This document shows positions 13,389-62,789 of a stretch of DNA of 64,000 bases, one piece after another. The stretch's first letter is position 1, and each line of letters starts with the position of its first letter. The notes below the pieces were generated by a model. The model was not told the origin of the DNA. It saw only the letters and a list, made by a program, of their open reading frames with translations, and did no database searches. Made by a program: the position numbers and the translations under genes. The stretch is from Squalus acanthias (Eukaryota): the NCBI GenBank assembly GCA_030390025.1, contig JASTWF010000339.1:1-64000 (forward strand). Reading direction: 5' to 3'.

Positions 13389-14069
13389 CAGACTCTTTGT
13401 GTCCTGCTGGTGGGTGGCTGCTCATTATCCTCGGTGTGATTTAATCCCCTTTCCCACTGAATACTGCGGACAGACAGGCTCACCTTGGCAACGGAATGGT
13501 CATTGTGACATCACTTTCTAAACAAGAGCCCACAAGACAATGGGTTATCAATAAATATTAAAGGGATTCAACGCTCTGAAGTTACACTGTGAATAAAGGA
13601 AATAAAATGCTGATCAATAATGGCTGAAGATAATGATTTCTCTCTGTGGAATGTGCTTGCACACATTAAGAATGACGAGCTTTGTACACACACACACAGC
13701 AAACACTTTGTGAGGCTCTTTTCAGTTGTTGCTTTGAGCCCGCTGTATGGTATTTTACACGGTGAGCAATAGGACCCTGCGGCCGCCCATCCGGCGGTGC
13801 TGTGAGGTCACGGTTCCAGGCTCTGTCTCACCCAATCAGTGGGTGCCGTCAAAGCTCAATAGAAAATACTGCAGCAAAAACAATCCTGAACATTCACAAA
13901 CTGGGAGCAATCGGCACAGCACAACACAAGTGTGAATTAGTAAACTTTAGCACACAGAGTCTGTCACTAATTAGTACAAAGTGCAGGGCACTATTGCTCA
14001 CCTTCAGTCCTGTCCCTCAATCCCAGCTCATCTCTGGGGGATTGTTACAAGGTTCACCCCGTCCTTCCC

Positions 14070-15445
14070 CGGTAGTGGGGAAAATGCTACAGTCCATTAT
14101 AAAAGATGTAATAGCAGAGCACTTGGAAAACAGTGACAGGATCGGACAAAGTCAACATGGATTTACAAAAGGTAAATCGTGCTTGACTAATCTACTGGAA
14201 TTTTTTGAGGATGTAACTGGCAGAATAGATAAGGGAGAACCAGTGGATGTGGTGTATTTGGACTTTCAAAAGGCTTTCGATAAGGTCCTGCATAAGAGAT
14301 TAGCGTGTAAAGTTAAGGCACATGGGATTGCGGGCAAGGTATTGACTTGGATAGAGAACTGGTTGGCAGACAGAAAGCAAAGAGTTGGAATAAACGGGTC
14401 TTTTTCCGAGTGGCAGGCAGTGACTAGTGGGGTACCGCAGGGATCGGTCCTTGGACCCCAGCTATTCACAATATATATCAATGATCTAGACGAGGGAACG
14501 AGATGCAATATCTCCAAGTTTGCAGACGACACAAAACTGGGTGGGCGTGTGTGCTGCGAGGAGGATGCCGAGAAACTCCAGGATGATTTGGACAGGTTGG
14601 GTGATTGGGCAGAAGCATAGCAGATGCAATATAACGTGAATAAATGCGAGGTTATCCACTTTGGTGTCGAATACAGGAAGGCAGATTATTATCTGAATGG
14701 CAATAGATTGGGGGAAGGGGAAGTGCAAAGAGACCTGGGTGTCCTTGTGCACCAGTCGCTGAAGGTAAGCATGCAGGTGCAGCAGACGGTTAAGAAGGCA
14801 AATGGTATGTTGGCCTTTGTAGCGAGAGGGTTTCAGTAGAGGAACAAGGATGTCTTGCTGCAGTTGTACAGGGCCTTGGTGAGACCACATCTTGAGTATT
14901 GTGTTCAGTTTTGGTCGCCTTATCTGAGGAAGGAGGTTCTTGCCATGGAAGGAGTTCAGCAAAGATTCACCAGGCTGATACCTGGGATGACATATGAGGA
15001 GAGATTGGGTCAATTGGGATTATACTCGCTGGAGTTTAGAAGAATGAGAGGGGATCTCATTGAAACTTATAAAATTCTGAAAGGACTGGACAGACTAGAT
15101 GCAGGAAGGATGTTCCCGATGGTCGGGGAGTCCAGAACCAGGGGTCACAGTCTAAGGATAAGGGGTAAGCCATTTAGGACAGAAATGAGGAGGAATTTCT
15201 TCACCCAGAGAGTGGTGAACCTGTGGAATTCTCTACCACAGAAGGCAGTAGAGGCCAAGTCAGTAAATATATTCAAGAAGGAGTTGGATATATTTCTTAA
15301 GGCTAAAGGGATCAAGGGATACGGGGAGAAAGCAGGGACAGGGTTCTGAATTTGGATGATCAGCCATGATCTCATTGAATGGCGGAGCAGGCTAGAGGAG
15401 CCAAATGGCCTACTCCTGCTCCTATCTTCTATGTTTCTATGTTTC
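14070..15445 (+). mobile_element. CR1 LINE, 5'-truncated RT region with nonsense codons
   Basis: [34 protein letters not shown] stops at 14618 and 14837; tail (TTCTATGT)n. Confidence 0.95.
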
Positions 15446-17546
15446 AACACAGATATTACCCACATAATCCCACGTCAATTAGACATTGCACACAGCTTCT
15501 GATAGTTATTAACAAGACTAAACCTATGCTTCGAACCAAAAAATTATTGCATCCTCCCACCCACTAAAACATATGTCTTTATTTATATTAATGTCTGTCT
15601 GTCTATCTATGAATGAAAGACAGGATCTGGTACAGTAATAACTGAGACAGGGTCTCGTAAAGTAATAACTGAGACAGGGTCTCGTGTAATATAAACAGAG
15701 ACAAGGTCTAATGTAATATAAACAGAGACGAGGTCGAGTGTAATATAAACAGAGACAAGGTCTAGTGTATTATAAACAGAGACAGGGTCTAGTGTAATAT
15801 AAACAGAGACGGGGTCTAGTGTAATATAAACAGAGCCCGGGTCTAGTGTAATATAAACAGAGACGGGGTCACGTGTAATATAAACAGAGACGGGGTCTAG
15901 TGTATTATAAACAGAGACGGGGTCTAGTGTAATATAAACAGAGACGTGGCCTAGTGTAATATAAACAGAGATGGGGTCTAGTGTAATATAAACAGAGACG
16001 GGGTCTAGTGTAATATAAACAGAGACGGGGTCTAGTGTAATATAAACAGAGATGGGGGTCTAGTGTAATATAAACAGAGACGGGGTCGAGTGTAATATAA
16101 AAAGAGATGGGGTCTAGTGCAATATAAACAGAGACGGGGTCTAGTGTAATATAAACAGAGACTGGGTGTTGTAATATGCACAGAGACAGGGTCGAGTGTA
16201 ATATAAACAGAGAGGGGACCTAGTGTAATATAAACAGAGACGGGGTCTAGTGCAATATAAACAGAGATGGGGTCCAGTGTAATACAAACAGGGACAGGGT
16301 CTAGTGTAATATAAACAGAGACCGGGTGTTGTAATATACACAGAGACAGGGTCCAGTGTAATATAAACAGAGATGGGGTCCAGTGTAATATAAACAGAGA
16401 CAGGGTCCAGTGTAACATAAACAAAGATGGGGTCTAGTGTAATATAAACAGAGATGGTGTCTAGTGTAATATAAATAGAGACGGGGACTAGTGTAATATA
16501 AACAGAGACGGGGCCTAGTGTAATATAAACAGAGACCGGGTGTTGTAATATACACAGAGACAGGGTCTAGTGTAATATAAACAGAGACAGGGTCTGGTGA
16601 AATATAAACAGAGACAGGGTCTGGTGAAATATAAACAGAGACAGGGTCTGGTGCAATATAAACAGAGACAGGGTCTGGTGTAATATAAACAGAGAAAGGG
16701 TCTGGTGTAATATAAACAGAGACAGGGTCCAGTGTAATATAAACAGAGACAGGGCCTAGTGTAATAAACAGAGACAGGGTCTAGTTTAATATAAACAGAG
16801 ACAGGGTCTAGTGTAACATAAACAGAGACAGGGTCCAGTGTAAAATAAACAGAGACAGGGTCTAGTCTAATATAAACAGAGACAGCGTCTAGTGTAATAT
16901 AAACAGAGACAGCGTCTAGTGTAATATAAACAGAGACAGGGTCTAGTGTAATATAAACAGAGACAGTGTCTCGTGTAATATAAACAGTGATGTGGTCTGG
17001 TGTAATATAAACAGAGACAGGTCGAGTGCAATATAAACTAAGACAGGGCCCAGTGCAATATAAACAGAGACAGGGTCTAGTGTAAAATAATCAGAAAAAG
17101 TTCTGGTGCAATAATAACTGAGACAGGGTCTAGTGTAATATAAACTGAGACAGGGTCTAGTGTAATATCCACAGGGACAGGGTCTAGTGTAAAATAAAAA
17201 GAGATAGTATCTAGTCTTCTATAAACAGAGACAGGGTCTAATGTAATATAAACAGTGACAGGTTGTAGAGTAATATAAACAGAGTAGGGTCTAGTGTAAT
17301 ATAAACAGAGACAGGGTCTAGTGTAATATAAACAGAGACAGGGTCTAGTGTAATATAAACAGAGACGGGGTCCAGTGTAATTTAATCAGAGATCGGGTCT
17401 AGTGTAATATAAACAGAGACATTGTCTAGTGCAATATAAACGGAGACAGTGTCTCATGTAATATAAACAGAGCCAGGGTCTTATGTAATATCAACAGAGA
17501 CAGGGTATAGTGTAATAAAAACAGAGACAGGGTCTAGTGTAATATA

Positions 17547-17679
17547 ATAGCAAAATACTGCAGATGCTGGAAATCCGAAATAACAACAGAAAACGCTGGA
17601 AAAACTCAGCAGGCCAGGCAGCATCCGTAGAGAGAGAAAGAGAGTTGACGTTTCAGGTCGATGACCTTTCAATCAGAAC
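17547..17679 (-). mobile_element. Short 3'-terminal fragment of a second Penelope-like family, inserted in the satellite
   Basis: Matches the 3' end of the PLE remnant at 53845-53975 (GATGCTGCCTG.CCTGCTGAGT...CCAGC.TTTTCTGTTGTTATT); carries a damaged hammerhead-like core CTGATTGA-AGGTCATCGACCT-GAAACGT. Confidence 0.7.
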
Positions 17680-19480
17680 AGGATCTGGTGCAATATTAAC
17701 AGAGACGGGGTCCAGTGTATTATGAACAGAGACCGGGTCTATTTTAATATAAACAGAGACATGGTCTAGTGTAATATAAGCAGAGACAGGGTCAGGTGTA
17801 ATATAAACAGAGAAAGAATCTAGTGTAATATGAAGAGATACAGGGTCTAGTGTAATATAAAAAGAGACAGGGTCTAGTGTAAAATAAACAGCGATGGGGA
17901 CTAGTGTAATTCAAACAGAGATATGGTCTTGTGTAACAGAAACAGAGACTGGGTCAAGTGTAATATAAACAGAGACAAGGTCTCGTTTAATCTAAACAGA
18001 AACCGGGTCTATTGTAATATACACAGAGACAGGGTCTTGTGTAAAACAAACAGAGATAGTGTCTAGTCTTCTATAAACAGAGACAGGGTCTAATGTAATA
18101 TAAACAGTGACAGGTTGTAGAGTAATATAAACAGAGTAGGGTCTAGTGTAATATAAACAGAGACAGTGTCTAGTGTAATATAAACAGAGACGGGGTCCAG
18201 TGTAATATAATCAGAGATCGCGTCTAGTGTAATATAAACAGAGACATTGTCTAGTGCAATATAAACAGAGACAGTGTCTCGTGTAATATAAACAGAGACA
18301 GGGTCTTATGTAATATCAACAGAGACAGGGTCGAGTGTAATATAAGCAGAGACAGGGTCTAGTGTACTATAAACAGAGACAGGATCGAGTGTAATATAAG
18401 CAGAGACAGCGTTTAGTGTAATATAAACAGAGACAGGGTCTAGTGTAATATAAACAGAGACAGGGTCTAGTGTAATATAAACAGAGACAGGGTCTAGTGT
18501 AATATAAACAGAGACAGAGTCTAGTGTAATATAAACAGAGACAGGTTCTCGTGTAATATAAACTGAGACAGGGTCTCGTGTAATTTAAACAGTGATGGGG
18601 TCCAGTGTAATATAAACAGAGACGGGGTCCAGTGTAATATAATCAGAGATCGCGTCTAGTGTAATATAAACAGAGACATTGTCTAGTGCAATATAAACAG
18701 AGACAGTGTCTCGTGTAATATAAACAGAGACAGGGTCTTATGTAATATCAACAGAGACAGGGTCGAGTGTAATATAAGCAGAGACAGGGTCTAGTGTACT
18801 ATAAACAGAGACAGGATCGAGTGTAATATAAGCAGAGACAGCGTTTAGTGTAATATAAACAGAGACAGGGTCTAGTGTAATATAAACAGAGACAGGGCTC
18901 GTGTAATATAACCAGAAACCGGGTCTTTTGTAATATCCACAGGGACAGGGTCTAGTGTAATATAAACAGAGACAGTGTCGAGTGTAATATAAGCAGAGAC
19001 AGCGTTTAGTGTAATATAAACAGAGACAGGGTCTAGTGTAATATTAACAGAGACAGGGTCTAGTGTAATATAAACAGAGACAGGGTCAGGTATAATATAA
19101 ACAGAGAAAGAGTCTAGTGTAATACAAAGAGATACAGGGTCTAGTGTAAAATAAGCACAGGCAGTGTCTAGTGTAAAATAAACAGCGACGGGGTCTAGTG
19201 TAATTCAAACAGAGACAGGGTCTAGTGAAATATAAACAGAGACAGGGTCTAGTGTAATTCAAACAGAGACAGGGTGTAGTGAATTATAAACAGAGACTGG
19301 GTCAAGTGTAAAATAAACAAAGACAGGGTCTAGTGTAATATAAACAGAGACAGAGTCTCGTGTATTATAAACATAAACCGGCTCTATTGTAAAATATACA
19401 GCGACAGGGTCTAGTGTAATAGAAACAGAGACTGGGTCAAGTGTAATATAAACAGAGACAGGGCTGGTGTAATATAAACA

Positions 19481-19953
19481 GGCGGCCTTCGAGACACACG
19501 ACAATGCAAAATCATCGAGCAGAAACTGATAGCCAAGTTCCGCACCCATGAGGACGGCCTCAATTGGGATCTCGGGTTCATGTCACGCTACAGAACGTGA
19601 CTCGACATCGTTGTCTGTCTTCCCCGTTTAAAAAAAAAAACAAAAAAAAAAGGTTAAAAACTCAACGACAGACAGCAGGATTTGAGACGTTGGACCCCCT
19701 GTGACCCATCTCATTGTCTTGGCTGTGCTCTGGTGTGTCTTTGATGTAATGCATCCCTGAAAGATTGTATCTCTGCAGTTTCTGTGTTTATATACTGTGC
19801 AATATTGTAGAATCCCACATTGTACCTTTACCTGACAAAGGGGCAGCAGCTCCGAAAGCTTGTTATTTTAAATAAATCTGTTGGACTATAACGTGGTGTT
19901 GTGCGACTTCTCATTTTTGTCCACCCCAGTCCAACACCGGCATCTCCGCATCA
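19481..19953 (+). mobile_element. 5'-truncated Penelope-like element (end of GIY-YIG + 3' terminal region)
   Basis: Encodes KIIEQKLIAKFRTHEDGL...GFMSRYRT*; ends ...GGCATCTCCGCATCA; TAATATAAACA is duplicated at 19470-19480 and 19954-19964. Confidence 0.92.
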
Positions 19954-22036
19954 TAATATAAACAGAGACAAGGTCTCGTGTAATATAAACAGAAACCGGG
20001 TCTATTGTAATATAAACAGAGAGAGGGTCTAGTGTAAAACAAACAGAGATAGGGTCCAGTCTTATATAAACAGAGACAGGATCTAGTGTAATATAAACGG
20101 AGACAGGTTCTCGTGTAATATAAACAGAGACGGGGTCTAGTGTAATATAAACAGAGACAGGTTCTCGAGTAATATAAACAGAGACAGGGTCTAGTGTCAA
20201 ATAAACAGAGACAGGGTCTAGTGTAATATAAACAGAGACTGGGTCTAGTGAAATATAAACAGAGACAGGGTCAGGTATAATATAAACAGAGAGAGAGAGA
20301 GAGTCTAGCGTATTATAAAGAGATACAGGGTCTAATGTAATATAAACAGAGGCAGTGTCTAGTGTAAAATTACCAGCGACGGGGTCTACTGTAATTCAAA
20401 CAGAGACAGGGTCTAGTGTAATATAAACAGAGACTGGGTCAAGTGTAATATAAACAGAGACAGGTTATCGTGTAATATAAACAGAGACAGGGTCTAGTGT
20501 AATATAAACAGAGACAGGGTCCAGTGCAGAATAAAAAGAGACAGGGTCTACTGTAATATAAACAGAGACAGGTCGAGTGCAATATAAACTGAGACAGGGC
20601 CCAGTGCAATATAAACAGAGACAGGGTCTAGTGCAATATCCACAGGGACAGGGTCTAGTGCAAAATAAACAGAGATGATGTGTAGTCTTATATAAAGAGA
20701 GACAGGGTCTAATGTAATATAAACAGTGACAGGTTATAGAGTAATTTAAACAGAGTAGGGTCTAGTGTAATATAAACAGAGACGGGGTCCAGTGTAATAT
20801 AATCAGAGATCGGGTCTAGTGTAATATAAACAGAGACATTTTCTAGTGCAATATAAACAGAGACAGTGTCTCGTGTAATACAAACAGAGACAGGGTCTTA
20901 TGTAATATCAACAGAGACAGGGTATAGTGCAATATAAACAGTGACAGGGTCGAGTGTAATATAAGCAGAGACAGCGTTTAGTGTAATATAAACAGAGACA
21001 GGGTCAGGTATAATATAAACAGAGAGAGAGAGAGTCTAGTGTAATATAAAGAGATACAGGGTCTAATGTAATATAATCAGAGGCAGTGTCTAGTGTAAAA
21101 TTAACAGCGACGGGGTCTAGTGTAATTCAAACAGAGATAGGGTCTAGTGTAATATAAACAGAGACTGGGTCTAGTGTAATATAAACAGAGACAGGTTCTC
21201 GTGTAATATAAACAGAGACAGGGTCTCGTGTAATATAAACAGAGACAGGGTCTTGAGTAATATAAAAAGAGAAATGGTCTAGTGTAATATAAACAGAGAC
21301 AGGGTCTAGTGTAAAATAAACAGAGACAGGGTCTAGTGTAATTAAACAGAGACAGGGTCCAGTGTAATATAAACAGAGACAGGGTCTAGTGTAATATAAA
21401 CAGAGACAGGTTCTCGTGTAATATAAACAGAGACCGGGTCTCGTGTAATATAAACAGTGATGGTGTCTAGTGTATTATAAACAGAGACAGGGTCTAGTGT
21501 AATATAAACAGAGACAGGTTCTCGTGTAATATAAACAGAGACAGGTTCTCGTGTAATATAAACAGAGACAGGGTCTAGTGTAATATAAACAGAAACAGTT
21601 CTGGTGCAGTAATAACTGAGACAGGGTCTAGTGTAATAAAAACAGAGACAGGGTCTAGTGTAATATAAACTGTTACAGGGTCTAGTGCAATATAAAAGAG
21701 ACAGGGTCGAGTGTAATACAAACAGAGACATGGTCTCGTGTAATAGAAAGTTAGACTGGGTCTAGTGTAATATAAACAGAGACAGGGCTGGTGTAATATA
21801 ACCGGAGACAGGGTCTCGTGAAATATAAACAGAAACCGGGTCTATTGTTATATAAACAGAGACAGGGTCTAGTGTAATATACACAGAGACAGGGACTAGT
21901 GTAATATCCACAGGGACAGGTTCGAGTGTAATATAAGCAGAGACAGCGTTTAGTGTAATATAAACAGAGACAGGTTCTAGTGTAATATTAACAGAGACAT
22001 GGTCTAGTATAATACTCCACATCATAGTATAATATA

Positions 22037-24873
22037 AGAAGTCGCACAACACCAGGTTATAGTCCAACAGATTTATTTAAAATTACAAGCTATTGGAGCT
22101 GTCGCTCCTTCTTCAGGTAGGGTAGCTGTGAGAGAATCTCCCAGAATTCACAATATAAACACAGAAAAAATGTATTCAAATCTTTCCCTACATCAAAGAC
22201 ACACTAAGAGCACAGCCAAGACAATGAGATGTGTCCCAGGGGGGCTGCATATCCTCTCCATTTGTATTAGGTTCTTGTGTTAGTTTTTTTTAAAAAAAAA
22301 CCTGGAAAGACCGGCCATGATGTCAAGTCACGTTCTGTATCGTGACATGAACCCGATATCGCGATTGAGGCCATCCTCATGAGTGCGGAACTTGGCTATC
22401 AGTTTCTGCTCTATGATTTTGCGCTGTCGTGTATCCCGAAGGCCGCCTTGGAGAACTCTTACCCGCAGATCCGAGGCTGAATGCCCCTGACTGCTGAAGT
22501 GTTCCCCGACTGGGAGGCAACCCTCCTGCCTGGCGATTGTTGCGCGGTGTCCGTTCATACGTTGTCTCAGTGTCTGCATGGTCTCGCCGATGTACCATGC
22601 TCTGGGGCATCCTTTCCTGCAACGTATGAGGTAGACAACGTTGGCCGAGTCACATGAGTATGTACCATGTACCTGGTGGGTAGTGTCCTCACGTGTGATG
22701 ATGGTATCTGTGTCCATGATCTGGCATGTCTTGCAGAGGTTGCTGTGGCAGGGTTGTGTGGTGTCGTGGTTGCTGTTCTCCTGAAAGATGGGTAATCTGC
22801 TGCGAACGATGGTACTTTTGAAGTTAGGCGGCTGCTTGAAGGCGAGTAGTGGAGGCGTGGGGATGGCCTTAGCAAGGTGTTCGCCGTCATCGATGACATG
22901 TTGAAGGCTGCGAAGAACATGGCGTAGTTTTTCCGCTCCGGGGAAGTACTGGACGACGTAGGGTACTCTGTTGGTTGTGTCCCGTGTTCATCTTCTGAGG
23001 AGGTCTATGCGGTTTTTCGCTGTGGCCCGTCGGAACTGTCGATCGACGAGTCGAGCGTCATATCCCGTTCTTACGAGGGCATCTTTCAGTGTCCGTAGGT
23101 GTCCATCGCGTTCCTCCTCGTCTGAGCAGATCCTGTGTATTCGCAGGGCTTGTCCATAGGGGATGGCTTCTTTAACGTGATTAGGGTGGAAGCTGGAGAA
23201 GTGGAGCATCGTGAGGTTGTCCGTGGGCTTGCGGTAGAGTGAAGTGCTGAGGCGTCCGTCTTTGATGGAGATTCGTGTGTCCAAGAATGAAACCGATTCT
23301 GAGGAGTAGTCCATGGTGAGTTTGATGGTGGGATGGAACCTGTTGATGCTATCGTGTAGTCCTTTCAGTGATCCTTCGCCGTGGGTCCAAAGGAAGAAGA
23401 TGTCGTCGATGTATCTGGTGTACAGCGTTGGTTGGAGGTCCTGTGCAGCGAAGAAGTCTTGCTCGAACTTGTGCATGAAGATGTTGGCGTATTGGGGTGC
23501 GAATTTGGTCCCCATGGCTGTTCCGTGTGTTTGGGTAAAAAAATGGTTGTCGAAGGTGAAGACATTGTGGTCAAGGATGAAGCGGATGAGTTGTAGGATG
23601 GCATCCGGAGATTGGCTGTTGTTGGTGTTGAGTACTGAGGCTGTCGCAGCGATGCCGTCATTGTGGGGGATATTGGTGTAGAGTGCCGATACGTCCATCG
23701 TGACGAGGAGTGTTCCTGGTTCAACTGGTCCATGGGTGCTGAGTTTCTGCAAGAAGTCTGTAGTGTCGCGACAGAAGCTGGGGGTTCCCTGTACGATGGG
23801 TTTCAGGATGCCCTCGACGTACCCAGAGAGGTTCTCACACAGGGTTCCGTTGCCTGATACGATAGGACGTCCGGGTGTGTTGGCTTTGTGTATCTTTGGG
23901 AGGCAGTAAAAGTCTCCTACGCGGGGAGTATGTGGGATGAGAGCGCGTAGGATGTTTTGAAGGTCTGGATCGAAGGTCTTGATCAGTCTATTGAGTTGGC
24001 GGGTGTGTTCTTTGGTCGGATCTGCGGGTAGCTGTCTGTAGTGTTCCTGGTTGTCCAGTTGTCGGTATGCTTCTTTGCAATGGTCCATTCTGTTCTGTAT
24101 GACAATGGCTCCTCCTTTGTCCGCTGGTTTGATGACGATGTTGCGGTTGGTCTTGAGAGCGTGGATGGCGTTGCGTTGTGCTCGGGTGACATTCTGGACT
24201 GTCTTGTGAGTACGGCTGATGAATCTGGCGTTGATGCATTTCCTGACAGCTTGAGCATACATGTCAAGCTTAGGGTTGCGACCCTCCGGAGGGGTCCAAT
24301 TTGACTCTTTCTTCCTCGGTTGTAGCACTGCGGTTCCCTCTGTCTGCTGTTCCGGATCATTGATTGTCTCATTAGGAATGTTGCTGACATCTTGGGATTT
24401 GTGGTAGTATTCCCAGATCCTCATTCTCCTGATGAATTCCTCTGTGTCTGCCGCGAGACCGATGGGGTCCATTTTTGTGGTGGGGCAGAACTTGAGCCCT
24501 AGGGCGAGAACTTCGATTTCGTCTGGTTGAAGGGTGTGGTCCGACAGGTTGACGATGGACTTCCCTGTGGTTGCAACCGTGGTACCGGGGGAGGCTTGGT
24601 TGCAGCTGGTGGTTACGCCGAGTTTCTCAAGCTTCCTGTTCTTGATGCGCATGTAGGCAGCGTAGTTCCGTTGCCTCGTCTGTTTGGCGGTGTCTCGTAG
24701 CTGGTCTGCTGTGTCCTGAGCACAGGCTGAGAGCATGGACTCTATCTTGGTTTCGAGGTTGCGACGTCTGCTGTAGAGCTGGTGTACGAGATGGTTGAGG
24801 AGTGTGCGAGAGGTACGACGGCAAAGTCTCTCAGCGTAGTCTGTGTTGTATGTCGACTTGAGTGGGTTCGTGA
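22037..24873 (-). mobile_element. Penelope-like element, inverted (left) arm; RT + GIY-YIG with one nonsense codon
   Basis: ORFs 22988..24736 and 22328..22717 are in the same frame, separated by a CGA>TGA change at 22988-22990; reverse complement of 24936-27795. Confidence 0.96.
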
Positions 24874-24874
24874 C

Positions 24875-27481
24875 ACAGACATCAAGTACCTGCAGAGATG
24901 CAAGAAAGCAGACAAGATTCCGAAAGGACTACAGATCACGAACCCACTCAAGTTGACATACAACACAGACTACGCTGAGAGACTTTGCCATCGTACCTCT
25001 CGCACACTCCTCAACCATCTCGTACACCAGCTCTACAGCAGACGTCGCAACCTCGAAACCAAGATAGAGTCCATGCTCTCAGCCTGTGCTCAGGACACAG
25101 CAGACCAGCTACGAGACACCGCCAAACAGACGAGGCAACGGAACTACGCTGCCTACATGCGCATCAAGAACAGGAAGCTTGAGAAACTCGGCGTAACCAC
25201 CAGCTGCAACCAAGCCTCCCCCGGTACCACGGTTGCAACCACAGGGAAGTCCATCGTCAACCTGTCGGACCACACCCTTCAACCAGACGAAATCGAAGTT
25301 CTCGCCCTAGGGCTCAAGTTCTGCCCCACCACCAAAATGGACCCCATCGGTCTCGCGGCGGACACAGAGGAATTCATCAGGAGAATGAGGATCCGGGAAT
25401 ACTACCACAAATCCCAAGATGTCAGCAACATTCCTAATGAGACAATCAATGATCCGGAACAGCAGACAGAGGGAACCGCAGTGCTACAACCGAGGAAGAA
25501 AGAGTCAAATTGGACCCCTCCGGAGGGTCGCAGCCCTAAACTTGACATGTATGCTCAAGCTGTCAGGAAATGCATCAACGCCAGATTCATCAGCCGTACT
25601 CACAAGACAGTCCAGAATGTCACCCGAGCACAACGCAACGCCATCCACGCTCTCAAGAGCAACCGCAACATCGTCATCAAACCAGCGGACAAAGGAGGAG
25701 CCATCGTCATACAGAACAGAATGGACTATTGCAAAGAAGCATACCGACAACGGGACAACCAGGAACACTACAGACAGCTACCCGCAGATCTGACCAAAGA
25801 ACACACCCGCCAACTCAATAGACTGATCAAGACCTTCGATCCAGACCTTCAAAACATCCTACGCGCTCTCATCCCACGTACTCCCCGCGTAGGAGACTTT
25901 TACTGCCTCCCAAAGATACACAAAGCCAACACACCCAGACGTCCTATCGTATCAGGCAACGGAACCCTGTGTGAGAACCTCTCTGGGTACGTCGAGGGCA
26001 TCCTGAAACCCATCGTACAGGGAACCCCCAGCTTCTGTCGCGACACTACAGACTTCTTGCAGAAACTCAGCACCCATGGACCAGTTGAACCAGGAACACT
26101 CCTCGTCACGATGGACGTATCGGCACTCTACACCAATATCCCCCACAATGACGGCATCGCTGCGACAGCCTCAGTACTCAACACCAACAACAGCCAATCT
26201 CCGGACGCCATCCTACAACTCATCCGCTTCATCCTTGACCACAATGTCTTCACCTTCGACAACCATTTTTTTACCCAAACACACGGAACAGCCATGGGGA
26301 CCAAATTCGCACCCCAATACGCCAACATCTTCATGCACAAGTTCGAGCAAGACTTCTTCGCTGCACAGCACCTCCAACCAATGCTGTACACCAGATACAT
26401 CGACGACATCTTCTTCCTTTGGACCCACGGCGAAGGATCACTGAAAGGACTACACGATAGCATCAACAGGTTCCATCCCACCATCAAACTCACCATGGAC
26501 TACTCCTCAGAATCGGTTTCATTCTTGGACACACGAATCTCCATCAAAGACGGACGCCTCAGCACTTCACTCTACCGCAAGCCCACGGATAACCTCACGA
26601 TGCTCCACTTCTCCAGCTTCCACCCTAACCACGTTAAAGAAGCCATCCCCTATGGACAAGCCCTGCGAATACACAGGATCTGCTCAGACGAGGAGGAACG
26701 CGATGGACACCTACGGACACTGAAAGACGCCCTCGTAAGAACGGGATATGACGCTCGACTCGTCGATCGACAGTTCCGACGGGCCACAGCGAAAAACCGC
26801 ATAGACCTCCTCAGAAGACGAACACGGGACACAACCAACAGAGTACCCTACGTCGTCCAGTACTTCCCCGGAGCGGAAAAACTACGCCATGTTCTTCGCA
26901 GCCTTCAACATGTCATCGATGACGGCGAACACCTTGCTAAGGCCATCCCCACGCCTCCACTACTCGCCTTCAAGCAGCCGCCTAACCTCAAAAGTACCAT
27001 CGTTCGCAGCAGATTACCCATCTTTCAGGAGAACAGCAACCACGACACCACACAACCCTGCCACAGCAACCTCTGCAAGACATGCCAGATCATGGACACA
27101 GATACCATCATCACACGTGAGGACACTACCCACCAGGTACATGGTACATACTCATGTGACTCGGCCAATGTTGTCTACCTGATATGTTGCAATAAAGGAT
27201 GCCCCAGAGCATGGTACATCGGCGAGACCATGCAGACACTGAGACAACGTATGAACGGACACCACGCAACAATCGCCAGGCAGGAGGGTTGCCTCCCAGT
27301 CGGGGAACACTTCAGCAGTCAGGGGCATTCAGCCTCGGATCTGCGGGTAAGCGTTCTCCAAAGCGGCCTTTGGGATACACGACAGCGCAAAATCATAGAG
27401 CAGAAACTGATAGCCAAGTTCTGCACTCATGAGGATGGCCTCAATCGCGATATCAGGTTCATGTCACGATACAGAACGTGA
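24875..27481 (+). CDS. PLE polyprotein: reverse transcriptase + GIY-YIG endonuclease (5'-truncated, open frame)
   Basis: IKPADKGG, YCLPKIHK, RPIVS, TMDVSALYTNI, GTAMG..FAP.YANIFM, RYIDDIF, FLD, Cys-containing linker (PCHSNLCKTC), VVYLI.C..C...WYIGET...LRQRMNGH. The first ~31 aa of ORF 24782..27481 derive from the inverted arm and are not native. Confidence 0.93.
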   Translation, partial: TDIKYLQRCKKADKIPKGLQITNPLKLTYNTDYAERLCHRTSRTLLNHLVHQLYSRRRNLETKIESMLSACAQDTADQLRDTAKQTRQRNYAAYMRIKNRKLEKLGVTTSCNQASPGTTVATTGKSIVNLSDHTLQPDEIEVLALGLKFCPTTKMDPIGLAADTEEFIRRMRIREYYHKSQDVSNIPNETINDPEQQTEGTAVLQPRKKESNWTPPEGRSPKLDMYAQAVRKCINARFISRTHKTVQNVTRAQRNAIHALKSNRNIVIKPADKGGAIVIQNRMDYCKEAYRQRDNQEHYRQLPADLTKEHTRQLNRLIKTFDPDLQNILRALIPRTPRVGDFYCLPKIHKANTPRRPIVSGNGTLCENLSGYVEGILKPIVQGTPSFCRDTTDFLQKLSTHGPVEPGTLLVTMDVSALYTNIPHNDGIAATASVLNTNNSQSPDAILQLIRFILDHNVFTFDNHFFTQTHGTAMGTKFAPQYANIFMHKFEQDFFAAQHLQPMLYTRYIDDIFFLWTHGEGSLKGLHDSINRFHPTIKLTMDYSSESVSFLDTRISIKDGRLSTSLYRKPTDNLTMLHFSSFHPNHVKEAIPYGQALRIHRICSDEEERDGHLRTLKDALVRTGYDARLVDRQFRRATAKNRIDLLRRRTRDTTNRVPYVVQYFPGAEKLRHVLRSLQHVIDDGEHLAKAIPTPPLLAFKQPPNLKSTIVRSRLPIFQENSNHDTTQPCHSNLCKTCQIMDTDTIITREDTTHQVHGTYSCDSANVVYLICCNKGCPRAWYIGETMQTLRQRMNGHHATIARQEGCLPVGEHFSSQGHSASDLRVSVLQSGLWDTRQRKIIEQKLIAKFCTHEDGLNRDIRFMSRYRT

Positions 27482-27712
27482 CTTGACATCATGGCCGGTC
27501 TTTCCAGGTTTAAAAAAAAAAAAACTAACACAAGAACCTAACACAAATGGAGAGGATATGCAGCCAGCAGGTGTTTTGACACGTTGGACCCCCTGGGACA
27601 CATCTCATTGTCTTGGCTGTGCTCTTAGTGTGTCTTTGATGTAGGGAAAGATTTCAATACATTTTTTCTGTGTTTATATTGTGAATTCTGGGAGATTCTC
27701 TCACAGCTACCC

Positions 27713-27748
27713 TACCTGAAGAAGGAGCGACAGTTCCGAAAGCTTGTA
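27713..27748 (+). ncRNA. Minimal type-I hammerhead ribozyme motif in the PLE 3' terminal region
   Basis: TAC-CTGAAGA-AGGAGCGACAGTTCC-GAAA-GCTT-GTA: core CUGANGA/GAAA/UH, stem II, palindromic AAGCUU stem III, stem I TAC/GTA. Confidence 0.75.
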
Positions 27749-30700
27749 ATTTTAAATAAATCTGTTGGACTATAACCTGGTGTTGTGCGACTTCTCATTT
27801 TTGTCCACCCCAGTCCAACGCCGGCATCTCCACATCATAGTATAATATAAACAGAGACAGGGTCAGGTATAACATAAACAGAGAAAGAGTCTAGTGTAAT
27901 ATAAAGAGATACAGGGTCTAATGTAATATAAAGAGAGGCTGTCTCTAGTGTAAAATAAACAGCGACGGGGTCTAGTGTAATTCAAACAGAGACAGGGTCT
28001 AGTGAAATATAAACAGAGACTGGGTCAAGTGTAAAATAAACAAAGACATGGTCTAGTGTAATATAAACAGAGACAGGGTCTCGTGTAATATAAACAGAAA
28101 CCGGCTCTATTGTAATATAAACAGCGACAGGGTCTAGTGTACTATCAACATTGACAGGGGCTAGTGTATATCAAAAGAGACAGGTTCTAGTGTAATATAA
28201 ACAGAGACAGGGTCGAGAGTAATATAAACAGAGACGGGGTCTAGTGTAAAATAAACATAGACCGGGTCTAGTATAATATAAACTGAGACATGGTCGAGTG
28301 TAATATAACCAGAGACATTGTCCAGTGTAATATAAGCAGAGACAGGGTCTAGAGTAATATAAACAGAGACAGGGTCTGGTGTAATATAAACAGTGCAAGG
28401 GTGTAATGTAATATAAACAGCGACAGGGTCTAGTATAATACAAACAGAGACAGGGTCTAGTGTTATATAAACTGAGTTAGGGTCTCGTTTAATATAAACA
28501 GAGACAGGGTCAGGTATAATATAAACAGAGAAAAAGTCTAGTGTAATATAAAGAGATACAGGGTCTTAGGTAATATAAACATAGACAGTGTGCAGTGTAT
28601 AATAAACAGAGACGGGGTCTAGTGTAATTCAAACAGAGACAGGGTCTAGTGTAATATAAACAGAGACAGGGTCTCGTGTAGTATAAACAGAAACCGGCTC
28701 TAGTGTAAAATAAACAGAGACAGGGTCTCGTGTAATATAACCAGTGACAGGGACCAGTGTAATATCAACAGAGACAGGTTCTAGTGTAATTTAAACAGAG
28801 ACAGGGTCTAGTGTAATATAAACAGAGACTGGGTCAAGTGTAATATAAACAGAGACAGGGCTGGTTTAATATAAACAGAGACAGGGTCTCGTGTAATATA
28901 AACAGAAACCGGGTCCATTATAATATAAACAGAAACAGGGTCTAGTGTAACATAAACAGAGACAGGGTCTCATGTAATATAAACAGTGACGGGGTCCAGT
29001 GTAAAATAAACAGAGACAGTGTCGAGTATAATATAAACTGAGACAGGGACCAGTGCAATATAAAAAGAGACAGGGTCTAGTGTAATATAAACAGAAACAG
29101 TTCTATTGCAGTAATAACTGTTACAGGGTCTAGTGTAATATAAAAGAGACAGGGTCTAGTTCAATATAAACAGAAGCCGAGTCTAGTGCAATATAAACAG
29201 AAGCAGGGTCTAGTGTAATATAACCAGAGACAGGTTAGAGTGTAAAATAAACAGAGACAGGGTCTAGTGTAATATAAACAGATACAGTTCTGGTGCAGTA
29301 ATAACTGAGACAGGGTCGAGTGTAACTTAAACAGAGACGGGGTCTAGTGTAATATAAACTGTTACAGGGTCTAGTGTAATATAAAAGAAACAGGGTCTAG
29401 TTTAATATAAACAGAAGCCGCGTCTAGTGCAATATAAACAGAAGCAGGTTCCAGTGTAATATAAACAGAGACAGGGTCTGGTGTAATATAAACAGAGACA
29501 GGGTCTTTTGTAATATAAAGAGAGACAGGGTCTAGTGTAATATAAACAGAGACAGGGACTTGTGTAATATAAACAGAGACAGCGTCTAGTGTAATATAAA
29601 CAGAGACAGGGTCTAGTGTAATATAAACTGAGACAGGGTCTAGCGTAATATAAACAGAGACAGGGTCAGGTGTGAAATAAACAGAGAAAGAGTCTAGTGT
29701 AATATAAAGAGATTCAGGGTCTAGTGTAATATAAACAGAGACAGGGTCTAGTGTAATATAAACAGAGACAGCGTCCAGTGTAATATAAACAGAGACAGGG
29801 TCTAGTGTAATATAAACAGAGACATGGTCTGGTGTAATATAAACAGAGACTGGGTCAAGTGTAAAATAAACAGAGACAGGGTCTAGTGTAATATAAACAG
29901 AGACAGGGTCTAGTGTAATATAAACAGAGACAGGGTCTAGTGTAATACAAACAGAGACAGGATCTAGTGTGATGTAAACAGGGACAGGGTGTTCTGCCAT
30001 AATAAGTGTGACTGGAGCTAATGTAATAAACAGAGATGCGTTCTAATATAAAATACACAGCGACATGGTCCAGTACAGTAATAACTGAGATGGTGCCTGC
30101 GCATAGTAGAATTTAAACTGACCCATGATTGATTGCGGTGATAATTGAGACAGGGCTGAGTGAAATTTGCACAAAGTATGGTCCAGTGCAATATTAAATG
30201 AAACAGGGCCTAGTGTCATCTAAACAGAGACACTATCTAGTGCAGTCAGAACTGAGAAAGTGTCCAGTGCAATTTTAACAGAGACAGTGTCTAGTGCAGT
30301 AATAAATGAGACATGGTCTGGTATAATATAAACAGAGTCGGAGTCTAGTGTAATATAAACAGAGACAGGGTCTGGTGTAATATAAACAGAGACAGGGTCC
30401 AGTGTAATATAAACAGAGACAGGGTCTAGTGTAATATAAACAGAGACAGGGTCCAGTACAATATAAACAGAGACAGTGTCTAGTGCAGTAATAAATGAGA
30501 CATGGTCTGGTATAATATAAACAGAGTCGGGGTCTAGTGTAATATAAACAGAGGCAAGGTTTTCACCATTAGAAGTGAGACTGGAGCTAATGTACAAATC
30601 AAAGACGCGGTCTAATGGAATATACACAACAACAGTGTCCAGTGCAATAATAATTAAGGCAGGGTCTAGTGCAATATAAAAAGAGACAGGGTGCAGTGCA

Positions 30701-31272
30701 ATGATAATTCAGACAAGGCCGCGTGTAATATAAACGGAGACAGGGTCTAGTGTAATATAAACAGAGACAGGGTCTAGTGTAATATAAATAGAGCTAAGGT
30801 CTACTGTAATATAAACAGAGACAGGGCCTAGTGTAATATAAACAGAGACAGGGTCTAGTGTAATATAAACAGAGACAGGGCCTAGTGTAATATAAACAGA
30901 GACAGGGTCTAGTGTAATATAAACAGAGACAGGGTCTAGTGTAATATAAACAGAGACAGGGCCTAGTGTAATATAAACAGAGAAAGGGTATGGTGTAATA
31001 TAAACAGAGACAGGGTCTAGTGTAATATAAACAGAGACAGGGTCTAGTGTAACATAATCAGAGACAGGGTCTAGTGTAATATAACCGGAGACAGGGTCTA
31101 GTGTAATATAAACAGAGACAGGGTCTAGTGTAATATAAAAAGAGACAGGGTCTAGTGTAATATAAACAGAGACAGGGCCCAGTGTAATATAAACAGAGAC
31201 AGGGTCTAATGTAATATAAACAGAGACAGGGCCTAGTGTAATATAAACAGAGACAGGATCTAGTGTAATATA

Positions 31273-32033
31273 GTGGAGATGCCGGCGTTGGACTGGGGTG
31301 GACAAAAATGAGAAGTCGCACAACACCAGGTTATAGTCCAACAGATTTATTTAATTTTACAAGCTTTTGGAGCTGTTCGCTCCTTCCTCAGGTAGGTTAG
31401 CAGTGAGAGAATCTCCCAGAATTCACAATTTAAACACAGACAAAATCTATTCAAATCTTTCCCTACATCAAAGACACACTAAGAGCACAGCCAAGACAAT
31501 GAGATGTGTCCCAGGGGGTCCAACGTGTCAAACCACCTGCTGGCTGCATATCCTGTCAATTTGTGTTGGTTCTTGTGTTAGTCCTTTTAAAAAAAAAACA
31601 AACACCTGGGAAGACCGGCCATGATGTCAAGTCACATTCTGTATCGTGACATGAACCCGATATCGCGATTGAGGCCATCCTCATGAGTGCGGAACTTGGC
31701 TACGTGACTTGACATCATGGCCGGTCTTCCCAGGTGTTTGTTTTTTTTTTTAAAAAGACTAACACAAGAACCAACACAAATTGACAGGATATGCAGCCAG
31801 CAGGTGGTTTGACACGTTGGACCCCCCTGGGACACATCTCATTGTCTTGGCTGTGCTCTTAGTGTGTCTTTGATGTAGGGAAAGATTTGAATAGATTTTG
31901 TCTGTGTTTAAATTGTGAATTCTGGGAGATTCTCTCACTGCTAACCTACCTGAGGAAGGAGCGAACAGCTCCGAAAGCTTGTAAAATTAAATAAATCTGT
32001 TGGACTATAACCTGGTGTTGTGCAACTTCTCAT
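31273..32033. mobile_element. Non-autonomous fold-back Penelope derivative (~760 bp)
   Basis: Arms ~31308-31635 and 31703-32033 are inverted copies of the PLE 3' region; the extra tail is only on the left; TAGTGTAATATA is duplicated at 31261-31272 and 32034-32045. Confidence 0.93.
31947..31983 (+). ncRNA. Minimal hammerhead ribozyme motif
   Basis: TAC-CTGAGGA-AGGAGCGAACAGCTCC-GAAA-GCTT-GTA; the mirror copy at 31358-31394 has GAAA>AAAA. Confidence 0.75.
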
Positions 32034-32594
32034 TAGTGTAATATAAACAGAGAGAGGGCCTAGTGTAATATAAACAGAGACAGGGTCTAGCGTAATATAA
32101 ACAGAGACAGGGCCCAGTGTAATATAAACAGAGACAGGGTCTAATGTAATATAAACAGAGTCAGGGTCTAGTGTAATATAAACAGAGACAGGGTCTAATG
32201 TAATATAAACAGAGTCAGAGTCTAGTGTAATATAAACAGAGACAGGGACTAGTGAAATATTAACTGAGGCAGGGTCTAGTGTAATATAAACAGAGACAGG
32301 GTCCAGTGTAATTTAAAAACATACAGACTCTGCACTCTGTCAATTAATCCCCTCACACTTCATGTCCCTGCTCTCAGACTGCGGGGTTCACGGTTTATTT
32401 TCTATCCAATCATTCTCGAAATATTCTGATCATTGAAGGCTGTCACATTCCATTTGTGCAATGCCTGTTTAATTGTTTTTTGTAATGTTACTATTGTTGG
32501 GACTGAAATGGTTAACTTGGTCTGTTTGTTTAACGACTGTAATTAATGTCAGTTCCCAGGGAATCTGCTCGTCTCTCTGGAGTTTTTACTCTAA

Positions 32595-35450: not shown

Positions 35451-35875
35451 AACATAGAAACATAGAATCTAGGAGCAGGAGTAGGCCATTCGACCCGTCG
35501 AGCCTGCTCCACCATTCAATACGATCATGGCTGATCATCCAAATCCAGTACCCCGTCCCTGCTCTAATCCCCACAGTACACATATCCCACCCTACCCCCG
35601 TAACCCCACGTATTTAATTCCCCCTAACATATCCCATCCTATCCCCATAACCCCACATATTTAATCCCCCCCTAACACTAAGGTTCAATTTATCATAGCC
35701 AAATCAACCTAACCCGCACATTTTTGGACTGTGGGAGGAAACCGGAGCACCCAGAGGAAACCCACGCAGACACGGGGAGAATGTGCAAACTCCACACAGA
35801 CAGTCACCCGAGGTCAGATTCGAACCCGGGTCCCTGGCGCTGTGAGGCACCAGTGCTAACCACTATGCCACCGTG
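35451..35875 (-). mobile_element. Full-length HE1-type V-SINE in the GPCR intron
   Basis: Minus strand begins CACGGTGGCATAGTGGTTAGCACTG (A box) ... GGTTCGAATC (B box), then the V-domain and a CR1-like 3' tail with (TTCTATGT)n. Confidence 0.93.
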
Positions 35876-35971
35876 TAGTAGCAAAGCTTCTAATTTCAGA
35901 TCGAACTCCACCGGTTTGCTGCTTCTGTTGGAGCCTGATGTATAATTTCTGTTTTGTAACCTTCCTTACAG

Positions 35972-36870
35972 TGAACTTGGTGACGATTGTGATCCTGTCT
36001 CGGGGAAGGTGCGGCCTCTCCAAATGTGTCTCCCGTTACCTGGTGTCCATGGCAGCGGCGGATCTACTGGTCATTATCATTGACGTGATACTAAGACAGA
36101 TTCCCGTCGCTTACGCTGCACAATTCCTCTTTGTACGGAATATTAAAGTGTGTAATATCCACGCTGTCCTGCTGTATGCAGTCACAGACTGTTCTGTCTG
36201 GTTCACAGTCGCTTTCACCTTTGATCGATTTGTGGCCATTTGTTGCCAGAAGCTGAAAACAAAATATTGCACCGAGAAAACGGCGGCTGTGGTTCTAGGA
36301 ACAGTGACTGTGCTGTTTTGTTTGCAAAATATTTTTTGGTACTTTATGTACACAAGTGAATATTTACTGTTTAACATGCCTTGGTTTTGCAATGTATTAG
36401 ACAGTGTTTTCTTTTCACGGGTATGGGCAACAATAGAATCTCTTCATTTTATTTTAACCCCATTTATTCCTTTTGTTCTGATTCTGCTGCTCAATGCTTT
36501 AACCATCAGACACATTTTATTGTCGAGCAGAGTCCGCAGGAGACTCCGGGCCCACAGCAGTGGGGAGAGTCCCAGTGACCCAGAGATGGAGAAGCGAAAG
36601 AAATCCATCATTTTACTGTTTGTTATATCCGGGAATTTTATCCTGTTATGGGTGATGTTTTTGGTGAATTCCATATACTTGCGCATAATCGCAATGTATA
36701 ATGACTCGAACATTAGCACTTCGCATATCCTACAAGAAATTGGATTCATACTTCAACTGTTGAGTTCTTGCACAAACACTTGTATTTATGCCGTGACCCA
36801 GACTAAATTCAGAGAGGAGTTGAAGTCTTTGGTGAAATTTCCCATCGCTCTAATTGCTAAATTAATGTAA
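35972..36870 (+). CDS. GPR139/GPR142-like orphan class A GPCR, coding exon 2 (spliced product 331 aa)
   Basis: Acceptor CTTCCTTACAG|; hydrophobic segments for the rest of TM1 through TM7; MAAADL (TM2), AFTFDRFVAIC (DRY-like), Cys in ECL2, SSCTNTCIY (NPxxY-like), basic helix 8. Confidence 0.92.
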
Positions 36871-37821: not shown

Positions 37822-39517
37822 GATCCCGTTCCTTTCTCCTGGTGACTCCTGGAAGGTGTCCAATAAGGTAGAGTAGCACAGCACTCACTCCTTTTAAGAG
37901 AAGTCCTCAGAGAATTTCCAGAATAAATGTTGATGGAGTGTTGGTGAAGTCTTGACGAAGTTTCCTAGAAAGTCTCCCGATGAGTTTCAAAAGTCCTCTT
38001 CAAAGCTCCAGCAGCAAGTGGACAGTAAAAGGCGATGTCCCTTTAAACAGCGCTCCAAATCTTCAGCAGCTACGCGTTTACTCCCAATCAGCTGGTCGCT
38101 GTTAGGAGAGGGCGTCAGGTCCAGCGCCGGCCACCAGAATGCCACGAAGCATCGTTAATGAGCGCTAGCAGGCAAGTTAAGTGGCAATTAGCTGCTTAAT
38201 GAACCTCCGGCGGCCGTTCATAGCGCAAGCTTCAACTCCTTGACCAAGATGGCGTCTTGCGTTAAACGGGGGCTAAACCGGTGTTTCAGCTTAAGACCCC
38301 AGTCTGGCCACCTTGGAGGCTCTTCAGCGCCTAAGGTATCTGGGGAACATCGCCGCCTCCCCACCCCTCCATCCCTTCTTATGAACTTTTGAATAGCTCA
38401 TGATGTCGTTCCGCCCTTCCGACGGGGGTGGCGCTGTAGCGCCTCAGCTTTGCGTTTCCCGACTCTGCAGCTCATAATTTAGAGAGATTCCGCTGCTCCA
38501 ACCCATGTCTCTGACTCCCAAACCGTAGAAAATGTTGCTACTTGGCCTCGACTCCCCATGTGCAACACCGCGGGAGATCATGTGGTAATAATATAAAATC
38601 ACAGTGCTAGGTATAAAAACGGCAGAATATGTCACTTTAAAATGGGACGTGGACAACATCTGTCCACCCTGGTCCGATTAACCCCGCCCTCTAACCCTGC
38701 TGCACCCGAAGACCACACCTGGTCTTAACTCCCCTATCTAACACTACAGGAGGTTGACTGTTATTCCCTACAACCAATATTTCCCAAGCAAGTACTCAGT
38801 CCCATTTTCCAGGCCTCCGTTGATTTTGGCTGTCTGATAACGTGTGCTGTACAACCTCGCATCCGTTCTGGGAAAACGCTGTCAACTGGCTGTACCTGGA
38901 ATCCTAACATGATGCCCCGTAGTTCTAGATTCCCCTACTAGAGAGAAGAGTTGTGTTATGTTATCTGTGTCTTCCTTAATTAGTCTACCATTTCGATCAA
39001 ACCGTCACACAATCTCATTTCGACACATTTTAGTACAAATTCATTCGGTCTCTGCACTCAGTCCATTTATCCGTCTTCTCACGCTGGTGATTTCTCGCTG
39101 GACTTTCTCCAAGGTGAGTATTTCCTTGCTAAGGTTTGTGACCCACACTGAAAACAACATGATCTAATAATAGCAACATTGTTTTTAATTACATGTAACT
39201 GCTTCATAGCAATCAGCAAGTACAAGAGAAATATACGCAGCAGTCACACAGAACCTGACCCAGAAACACAGTATCGGACCAAGTAGATGGAGCTTTACAC
39301 GGTTTCTAACGCGTGTTGTTCCTTCCCTGGGAGTGTTTGATAACATGAGAACATACCAAATATGAGCAGGAGTAGGACATACGGCCCCTCGAGCCTGCTC
39401 CGCCATTCAATAAGATCATGGCTGATCTTCAACCTCAAATCCACTTTCCCGCCCCATCCCCATATCCCTTGATTCCATTTGAGTCCAAAAATCTATCGAT
39501 CTCAGCCTTGAATAAAC

Positions 39518-44064: not shown

Positions 44065-44386
44065 CAAAGTCTCCAGGTAACTCTATCCCCGCCCTCACTG
44101 ATGCCTCGCAATGTCTGCACCTCAGGGTCCAGCTCAACAACTCTGAGCTGAAGTTCCTCGAGATGCAGACATTTACCGCAGATCTGGTTGTCCGGGATCG
44201 GGATGCTCCCACAAACTCCCACATGCTGCAGTTGCGGTACACCTCCTGCACTGCCATCCCTATCAAACCTTGTTTTATTTATTTAATTAATTAAAATGTA
44301 TGAATTTAATCAAGTTAGCTTATAGTTTTTAGTATCATCACGAATTACTTGATTTAGTTTAAGTTATAGGTAAATTAAATTAAATA

Positions 44387-44597
44387 TGATGTGGAGATGC
44401 CGGTGTTGGACTGGGGTGGACAAATGTGAGAAGTCGCACAACACCAGGTTATAGTCCAACAGCTTTATTTGAAATCACAAGCTTTCGGAGCGCTGCTCCT
44501 TCGTCTGACTTCACCTGACGAAGGAGCAGCGCTCCGAAAGCTTGTGATTTCAAATAAAGCTGTTGGACTATAACCTGGTGTTGTGCGACATCTCACA
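44387..44597. mobile_element. Non-autonomous fold-back Penelope derivative (~210 bp)
   Basis: Inverted arms of the PLE terminus around a ~12-nt loop; tail only on the left; TTAAATTAAATA is duplicated at 44375-44386 and 44598-44609. Confidence 0.92.
44511..44547 (+). ncRNA. Minimal hammerhead ribozyme motif
   Basis: TCAC-CTGACGA-AGGAGCAGCGCTCC-GAAA-GCTT-GTGA. Confidence 0.78.
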
Positions 44598-62205: not shown

Positions 62206-62433
62206 GACATTTCTACAGTGAACACTGCTGACCCCGAGAGTTCCTTCTGCTCCTAACACCTGGCAATGTTCCGGACTGTTCCCGTCTTCATTAATTGAGT
62301 GAGGCTGCATAACTGATGGCAGGTCTCGTAACTGAATCACAAAGTTTTAATGATGCAGAGATGCCGGTGTTGGACTGGGGTGGACAAAAGTGAGAAGTCG
62401 CACCAGGTTATAGTCCAACAGTTTTATTTGAAA

Positions 62434-62471
62434 TCACAAGCTTTCGGAGCTGCTGCCCCTTCGTCAGGTGA
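62434..62471 (-). ncRNA. Minimal hammerhead ribozyme motif (minus strand)
   Basis: Reverse complement reads TCAC-CTGACGA-AGGGGCAGCAGCTCC-GAAA-GCTT-GTGA. Confidence 0.75.
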
Positions 62472-62665
62472 AGTGAAGGAATACGAATCGGCAAAGCATA
62501 TATAGACAGAGAACAATGCCTGTGTAGCGTACAATCTCAGACAACTACAGTTAATGTGTGTGATGAAAGGCAGTCAGAACGATTAACTGTAGTCGTCTGA
62601 GATTGTACGCTACACAGGCATTGTTCTCTGTCTATATATGCTTTGCCGATTCGTATTCCTTCACT

Positions 62666-62703
62666 TCACCTGACGAAGGGGCAGCAGCTCCGAAAGCTTG
62701 TGA
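62666..62703 (+). ncRNA. Minimal hammerhead ribozyme motif
   Basis: TCAC-CTGACGA-AGGGGCAGCAGCTCC-GAAA-GCTT-GTGA. Confidence 0.75.
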
Positions 62704-62789
62704 TTTCAAATAAAACTGTGGGACTATAACCTGGTGTTGTGCGACTTCTCACAAAGTTTTATGTTCAACATCCACTGTCAGCCTTTTTT

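Follow-up and report, generated by a model that had tools for sequence, protein, structure and literature searches.

The DNA analysed here is a 64,000-nucleotide stretch of the Squalus acanthias genome (contig JASTWF010000339.1, positions 1 to 64,000, called the window below), which contains at 22037-27837 a 5.8-kb head-to-head palindrome of a Penelope-like element (PLE), embedded in a 27-bp satellite. The palindrome is a long member of an already described PLE layout, and it is real, derived from a single source and decayed. We are highly confident of the family assignment and of the single origin. The way in which the second arm was made is less certain; by a little more than an even chance, both nicked target strands primed complementary DNA (cDNA), each at one of the element's two start sites and from the same source RNA, with the two cDNAs then joined by a 2-bp microhomology. 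The palindrome is composed of the following parts (UTR, untranslated region; ORF, open reading frame).

22037..24873, minus strand: left arm, tail-less, an inverted copy of 24936-27795 (arm alignment)
22243..22244, minus strand: site of the 24-bp deletion in the left 3' UTR, corresponding to 27565-27588 in the right arm; the segment is kept in the copies at 31273 and 19482
22988..22990, minus strand: premature stop of the left arm, a CGA>TGA CpG transition
24872..24873, no strand: microhomology of 2 bp where the two arms meet (arm alignment compared with runs X1 and X2, in which family contigs have loose ends at 24871/24872)
24874..24935, plus strand: unpaired 62-bp spacer, sense ORF of the right arm (continuous with the ORF frame; relatives align from the first residue)
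27796..27837, plus strand: 42-nt tail, on the right arm only (sequence comparison)

The left arm (2,837 bp) is the reverse complement of the right arm (2,860 bp), with 2,793 of 2,861 alignment columns identical. The arms differ by 43 substitutions, five of which lie inside one T/A homopolymer tract, and by 25 gap columns, 24 of which represent the single deletion in the left 3' UTR. Among the 33 substitutions that fall in coding sequence, 18 are CpG transitions, against a 12% share of CpG sites (P about 5e-9), and derived changes, polarised by shark homologues and family contigs, are present on both arms. An earlier note on this DNA, made from its letters alone, had given the coordinates, the arm lengths, the 62-bp spacer, the one-sided 42-nt tail and a single 12-bp target-site duplication, all of which agree with our analysis. 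The private substitutions, many of which it placed at CpG, were likewise recovered, together with the left CGA>TGA stop, the left 3'-UTR deletion (24 bp) and a damaged left hammerhead. Two of its descriptions hold in part. The spacer has the size it gave and is the sense ORF of the right arm, and the arms, described as truncated at almost the same point, have 5' ends 64 bp apart. Judged by the loose contig ends, the right arm begins at 24872, so that the two arms overlap by 2 bases.

These differences also bear on the explanation that a read folded back during sequencing or assembly. No piece spanning the head-to-head junction is among those listed from the public runs, and the right-arm letters at 25659, 25937, 26369 and 26590 have zero depth in both X1 and X2, as such an artefact would have it; the contigs show presence, not absence. 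Against it stand 38 substitutions outside the homopolymer, enriched at CpG and derived on both arms, as well as the one-sided tail, the target duplication and three like structures nearby. As the earlier note argued, an artefact is extremely unlikely.

The common source of the two arms was traced by comparing public runs X1 and X2 with 24830-27860, where 55% and 95% of those runs were read. Among the public runs listed by the preceding search, the best contained 75% of the query words, and none was on record as RNA or small RNA. Among the 40 listed rows (of 96), 38 were tested; as each row is a departure from the right arm, letters private to the left arm are under-represented. Rows 27655 and 27734 were left out, being positions past indels; at each of them the left arm carries the family letter. 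At 25 of the 38 family-variable sites the two arms carry the same letter, including family-rare letters and sites at which the family is split. Particularly, the arms agree at 26925, where over 99.9% of the summed depth in X1 and X2 carries another letter. At the other 13 sites the right arm alone is private, and the family letter is kept on the left. The single event from one source proposed earlier is thus borne out by the shared letters, rare ones included. The test set for it, whether the arms belong to different subfamilies with separate duplications, was run, and the shared rare letters and the one duplication reject that possibility.

The same observations make it highly unlikely that two independent insertions landed head to head. 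The site has been used more than once, as a 10-nt stub described below indicates, and several PLE inserts lie in the satellite, but a single duplication brackets both arms with none between them, the rare letters are common to both, and the layout occurs four times in 64 kb. If an older source copy had itself been palindromic, its transcript would be a hairpin RNA, and a single round of reverse transcription of it would also yield one duplication, one tail and matched arms; multi-copy transcripts are believed to serve as PLE templates (PMC11167929). However, the four pairs of arms in the window have four different centres, and at the 13 differing sites the family contigs contain the right-arm letter hardly or not at all, as decay in place, and not inheritance from a source, would predict. 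Such a hairpin template is improbable. In run X1, at least one opposite-strand joint has its sides 121 bp apart (15 of 29 joints were listed).

No tract of conversion between the arms is evident, the longest identical run being 343 bp (P=0.18). Four right-arm differences are clustered within 13 bp, at 27181-27193. A second template was considered for this cluster, but at 27192, the sole listed site of the four, the left letter is present in over 99.8% of the depth.

The palindrome interrupts the satellite at 22015-27837, and the array resumes again at 32034-32317. The outer junctions are built from the elements below (TRF, Tandem Repeats Finder).

15640..22014, no strand: 27-bp satellite, left part, holding two other small inserts (TRF, 235.9 copies)
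22005..22014, plus strand: third copy of the target 10-mer, a satellite variant seen 4 times in the counted stretches, where the common form is seen 101 times
22015..22024, plus strand: 10-nt tail stub in sense orientation, an exact match to 27828-27837, the last 10 nt of the tail
22025..22036, plus strand: left 12-bp target-site duplication; base 22037 fits target and element alike
27838..27849, plus strand: right 12-bp target-site duplication
27838..31272, no strand: 27-bp satellite, right part

The outer-junction repeat extends to 23 bp (22015-22037 = 27828-27850), because the tail stub and the third target 10-mer sit on the left side. The single 12-bp duplication around the whole insert, as described earlier, is therefore correct; the stub and the third target copy had been missed. 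Their simplest reading is that an abortive 10-nt insertion with its own duplication was likely followed by the large insertion at the same site. Among six insertions examined, this is the one with a tail stub between target copies (22005-22036). Three inserts of the palindrome's family lie in the 27-bp satellite, with duplications at 22025, 31261 and 19470, and two of them start at the same unit phase. In addition, contigs from run X1 contain more tail-less ends joined to satellite-like flank. The unit phase and the X1 joints suggest that the satellite is a favoured target of this family.

The element was identified from the open frame of the right arm, in which the following features are located (RT, reverse transcriptase).

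24875..27481, plus strand: open frame of 868 codons without native start (Pfam RVT_1, E=1.7e-8; motifs and alignment to 120 homologues)
26396-26407, plus strand: YIDD of the RT (motif)
27059-27085, plus strand: CX4CxxC linker, aa 729-737 (motif)
27167-27229, plus strand: GIY-YIG-type motifs (motif only)

The single ORF carries the GLKF (GxKF), DKG and YIDD motifs of a PLE-type RT. Its C-terminal part contains the CCHH motif and the R/H/E/N residues of the GIY-YIG endonuclease, by motif reading at aa 765-857 against the description in PMC8557442. Pfam GIY-YIG gave no match on either endonuclease region; the homologue search returned 3,986 homologues among 8,000 scored, some of which are listed with PF01541. 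According to the same paper, a CX2-5CxxC linker defines the Neptune and Nematis clades and is absent in Penelope/Poseidon. The linker is present in the palindrome's frame, as it is in 102 of 102 YIG-bearing homologues among the 120 examined, and therefore the name 'Penelope' holds only in the broad sense. The sequence features thus point to a Neptune/Nematis-type endonuclease-bearing PLE. A choice of Neptune over Nematis would follow from the vertebrate host, vertebrates being listed with Neptune and Poseidon, rather than from a tree. The closest named proteins are from shark, at 90%, 83% and 82% identity.

The earlier note had called this an open RT-GIY-YIG frame, and the 868 codons are indeed open, but the frame gives no evidence of activity. 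Three long relatives carry 22, 24 and 29 residues ahead of the first aligned one, and the right-arm frame is without its first ~22-29 codons. Moreover, in the alignment of 120 homologues it departs from the conserved column at residue 293 (conserved in 118 of the 118 homologues having a residue there), at residue 355 (99% of 119) and at residue 306 (92% of 118). No upstream pseudo long terminal repeat (pLTR) was found at the palindrome. With the start missing, no upstream pLTR and conserved residues changed, this does not qualify as an active autonomous PLE copy. Selection on the open frame was considered and rejected, as 23 of the 33 coding differences between the arms are non-synonymous and the neutral expectation is 23.0 (18-28). 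An open frame is also unremarkable: when about 19 neutral changes were simulated 5,000 times, the frame remained open in 49% of the trials. Both arms have decayed neutrally, and probably neither encodes an active product.

Each arm has a hammerhead motif in its terminal repeat.

22084..22119, minus strand: left minimal hammerhead motif, with two changes in the GAAA core, at 22094 and 22092
27713..27748, plus strand: right minimal hammerhead motif, core intact (folds)

The core and helix II are present, and the pairing of helix I covaries between the subfamilies of the window (6 folds), which argues for a terminal-repeat minimal hammerhead as predicted from sequence. The right motif matches the minimal type described for PLEs in PMC4209133. 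Rfam gave 0 matches in the window at the gathering score.

Three further head-to-head pairs are located in the window.

31273..32034, no strand: second pair, same family, with arms of about 330 bp; the tailed arm carries the 65-bp loop; duplication of 12 bp
44385..44596, no strand: third pair, from a related subfamily, with arms of about 83 bp; the tail-less arm carries the loop (about 10 bp); duplication of 13 bp
62350..62752, no strand: fourth pair, from a related subfamily, with arms of about 170 bp; the tail-less arm carries the loop (about 25 bp); duplication of 13 bp

Each of these shorter pairs has one tail, one duplication and arms 1-3 substitutions apart. Together with the palindrome they display the insertion layout of PLEs, that is, an inverted 5'-truncated copy, an optional tail and a target duplication. 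The loop lies on the tailed arm in two of the four pairs (62 and 65 bp) and on the tail-less arm in the other two (about 10 and 25 bp). The loops at 24874-24935 and 31638-31702 are similar in length though the arms differ ninefold; with n=2 this may be chance. In addition, the window contains a solo tailed copy at 19482 and a solo tail-less copy at 39517-40021, each flanked by a duplication. All five tail-less ends (four arms and one solo copy) fall within nine bases, at the equivalents of 27795-27803, and each abuts the target duplication. They overlap with the target by 1, 1, 3, 4 and 3 bases, which exceeds a rough null (P 0.002-0.03), and the tailed ends show no excess overlap under the same null.

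These junctions bear on the two main explanations of the inverted arm. In the first, a tail-primed first cDNA folds onto a 2-bp complement situated 62 nt from its end, copies itself, is cut or stopped at the tail boundary and joins the other target end. Such a fold-back accounts for the matched arm lengths and the common source together, and the loop lies on the tailed arm in both the palindrome (62 bp) and the pair at 31273 (65 bp). Self-priming has been proposed for head-to-head PLE structures (PMC3846280), and resolution by the endonuclease has been offered as the origin of the tail (PMC8557442). The pairs at 44385 and 62350, however, carry their loop on the tail-less arm. If a tailed first strand folds back, the loop ends up on the tailed arm; if a tail-less strand does so, no tail can be added. 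This favours two primings. Furthermore, copying would have to halt at the tail boundary every time. The solo tail-less copy has its own duplication, and so no partner is needed to produce a tail-less end. Tail-less ends overlap the target more than expected from the rough null, so that they look primed. The single event put forward in the earlier note stands; its fold-back mechanism is weakened by these observations, and we regard it as possible but on the unlikely side.

The overlaps at the tail-less ends and the loop on the tail-less arm in two of four pairs instead favour priming on both target strands. In this order of events, which we infer, a 10-nt abortive insertion at the target site would come first. 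The element protein would then nick both target strands 12 bp apart in the 27-bp satellite, and one target 3' end would prime cDNA from the tail end. The other target 3' end would prime cDNA at the second start site, 42 nt upstream of the first, and its template would be either the RNA already used or a sister RNA of the same source. The cDNAs would be joined at their 3' ends via the 2-bp microhomology, after which the arms would decay neutrally, the insertion being old. This proposal is in line with results on purified PAc, a PLE protein of the anole, which nicks and extends both target strands (PMC11167929). PAc initiates at two RNA sites, the tail being the interval between them, and the start sites are alike on both strands (PMC11167929). 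It starts 111-118 nt from the point of helix II equivalent to the one that lies about 115 nt from the tail end in the palindrome (PMC11167929).

Several points weigh against two primings. The arm lengths agree within 10-65 bp over arms of 83-2,860 bp, and independent primings alone do not explain this agreement. Only about 1.5-4% of family copies seem to reach so far 5', a rough figure from summed depth, which is no copy number. The matched lengths would need the extra assumption that the same RNA was copied twice or that a coupled dimer acted. In the palindrome itself the tailed arm carries the loop, so that this pair agrees with fold-back just as well, and the 2-bp microhomology fits both explanations. 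A later deletion at the centre of a palindrome could shift its loop. Moreover, the two contrary pairs (44385 and 62350) are of another subfamily, the overlap at the palindrome's tail-less end is 1 base only, PAc belongs to the Poseidon clade and the palindrome's element does not, and the comparison comprises n=4 pairs in one window.

A tentative variant of the two primings has a dimeric enzyme copying one RNA twice, once per nicked strand and start site, with the second copy displacing the first. One RNA copied twice would supply the coupling for the matched arm lengths. If true, it would account at once for the one-sided tail, the matched arms, the common source and the occurrence of loops on either arm. 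The distance between the two enzymes might then be mirrored in the loop lengths of 62 and 65 bp. The PLE RT is not known to have RNase H. Derivation of the inverted arm from two-strand priming was not found in our searches of the open-access literature, subscription papers, including the original Drosophila work, lying outside that coverage. The passages of PMC11167929 used here do not trace the inverted arm to extension of both strands, and those of the preprint 10.64898/2026.07.22.740005 are silent on that arm.

In the published PLE layout the inverted copy is 5'-truncated and a single end carries a tail (Fig. 2 legend of PMC8557442; Pen2a_Av in PMC3846280). Like the canonical unit described in these two papers, the palindrome comprises an inverted truncated copy placed head to head, bears a tail on one side, is enclosed by a single duplication and has an AT-rich target. 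In contrast, its inverted copy is about 2.8 kb and covers nearly the whole ORF, compared with a pLTR of about 200 bp; there is no upstream direct pLTR, the tail is 42 nt long rather than the quoted 30-40, and an extra tail stub is present on the left. Long inverted repeats reaching into the element body, as here, have been described for Penelope in transformed Drosophila melanogaster (PMC3681739) and for Pen3/Pen4 of Adineta vaga (PMC3846280), which are of another clade and host. PAc (Poseidon, Anolis carolinensis; PMC11167929) shares with the palindrome's element the order RT then GIY-YIG, the hammerhead upstream of the tail, two 3' end positions and the ~115-nt distance, whereas the palindrome's element has the CX4CxxC linker, which the Penelope/Poseidon clade is without. 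Twin priming of LINE-1 (bioRxiv 10.1101/2024.12.14.628481) likewise places inverted cDNAs at both target ends in one event, but in the example described there they represent adjacent non-overlapping parts of the mRNA, and here the same 2.8 kb is duplicated.

The origin of tandem and inverted PLE structures has been called undefined (PMC8557442). The junction features used here, namely the side and length of the loop, the overlap at tail-less ends and the shared rare letters, can be counted over thousands of shark copies and would separate two-strand priming from fold-back. In addition, the palindrome demonstrates that a 5.8-kb near-perfect inverted repeat can last long enough to reach 1.3% divergence with no visible conversion tracts. 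A cruciform is unlikely to be extruded across a spacer of 62 bp; in single-stranded DNA, a hairpin could form. A hairpin RNA would need a transcript running inward through both arms. In the transformed flies, small interfering RNAs matched the inverted Penelope regions (PMC3681739), a precedent for the possible endo-siRNA source suggested in the earlier note.

Other parts of the window contain further repeats and frames. A short non-satellite insert in the satellite, at 17548-17685, has no match to the palindrome's family; by eye it resembles the inverted end of a different shark repeat. The segment 53286-53546 gives a weak tblastn match to the endonuclease region (33%, E=0.004) and is perhaps an older, diverged PLE fragment. 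An open frame at 9335-10213 contains, by eye, tandem C2H2 zinc fingers with an 84-bp period, and a single open frame of 336 codons at 35860-36870 resembles, also by eye, a seven-transmembrane receptor. Two long frames similar to the endonuclease-RT of long interspersed elements (LINEs), each split once, are located at 4304-7269 (minus strand) and 47949-50955 (plus strand), and further LINE-like fragments lie at 13766-15349 and 58783-62178.

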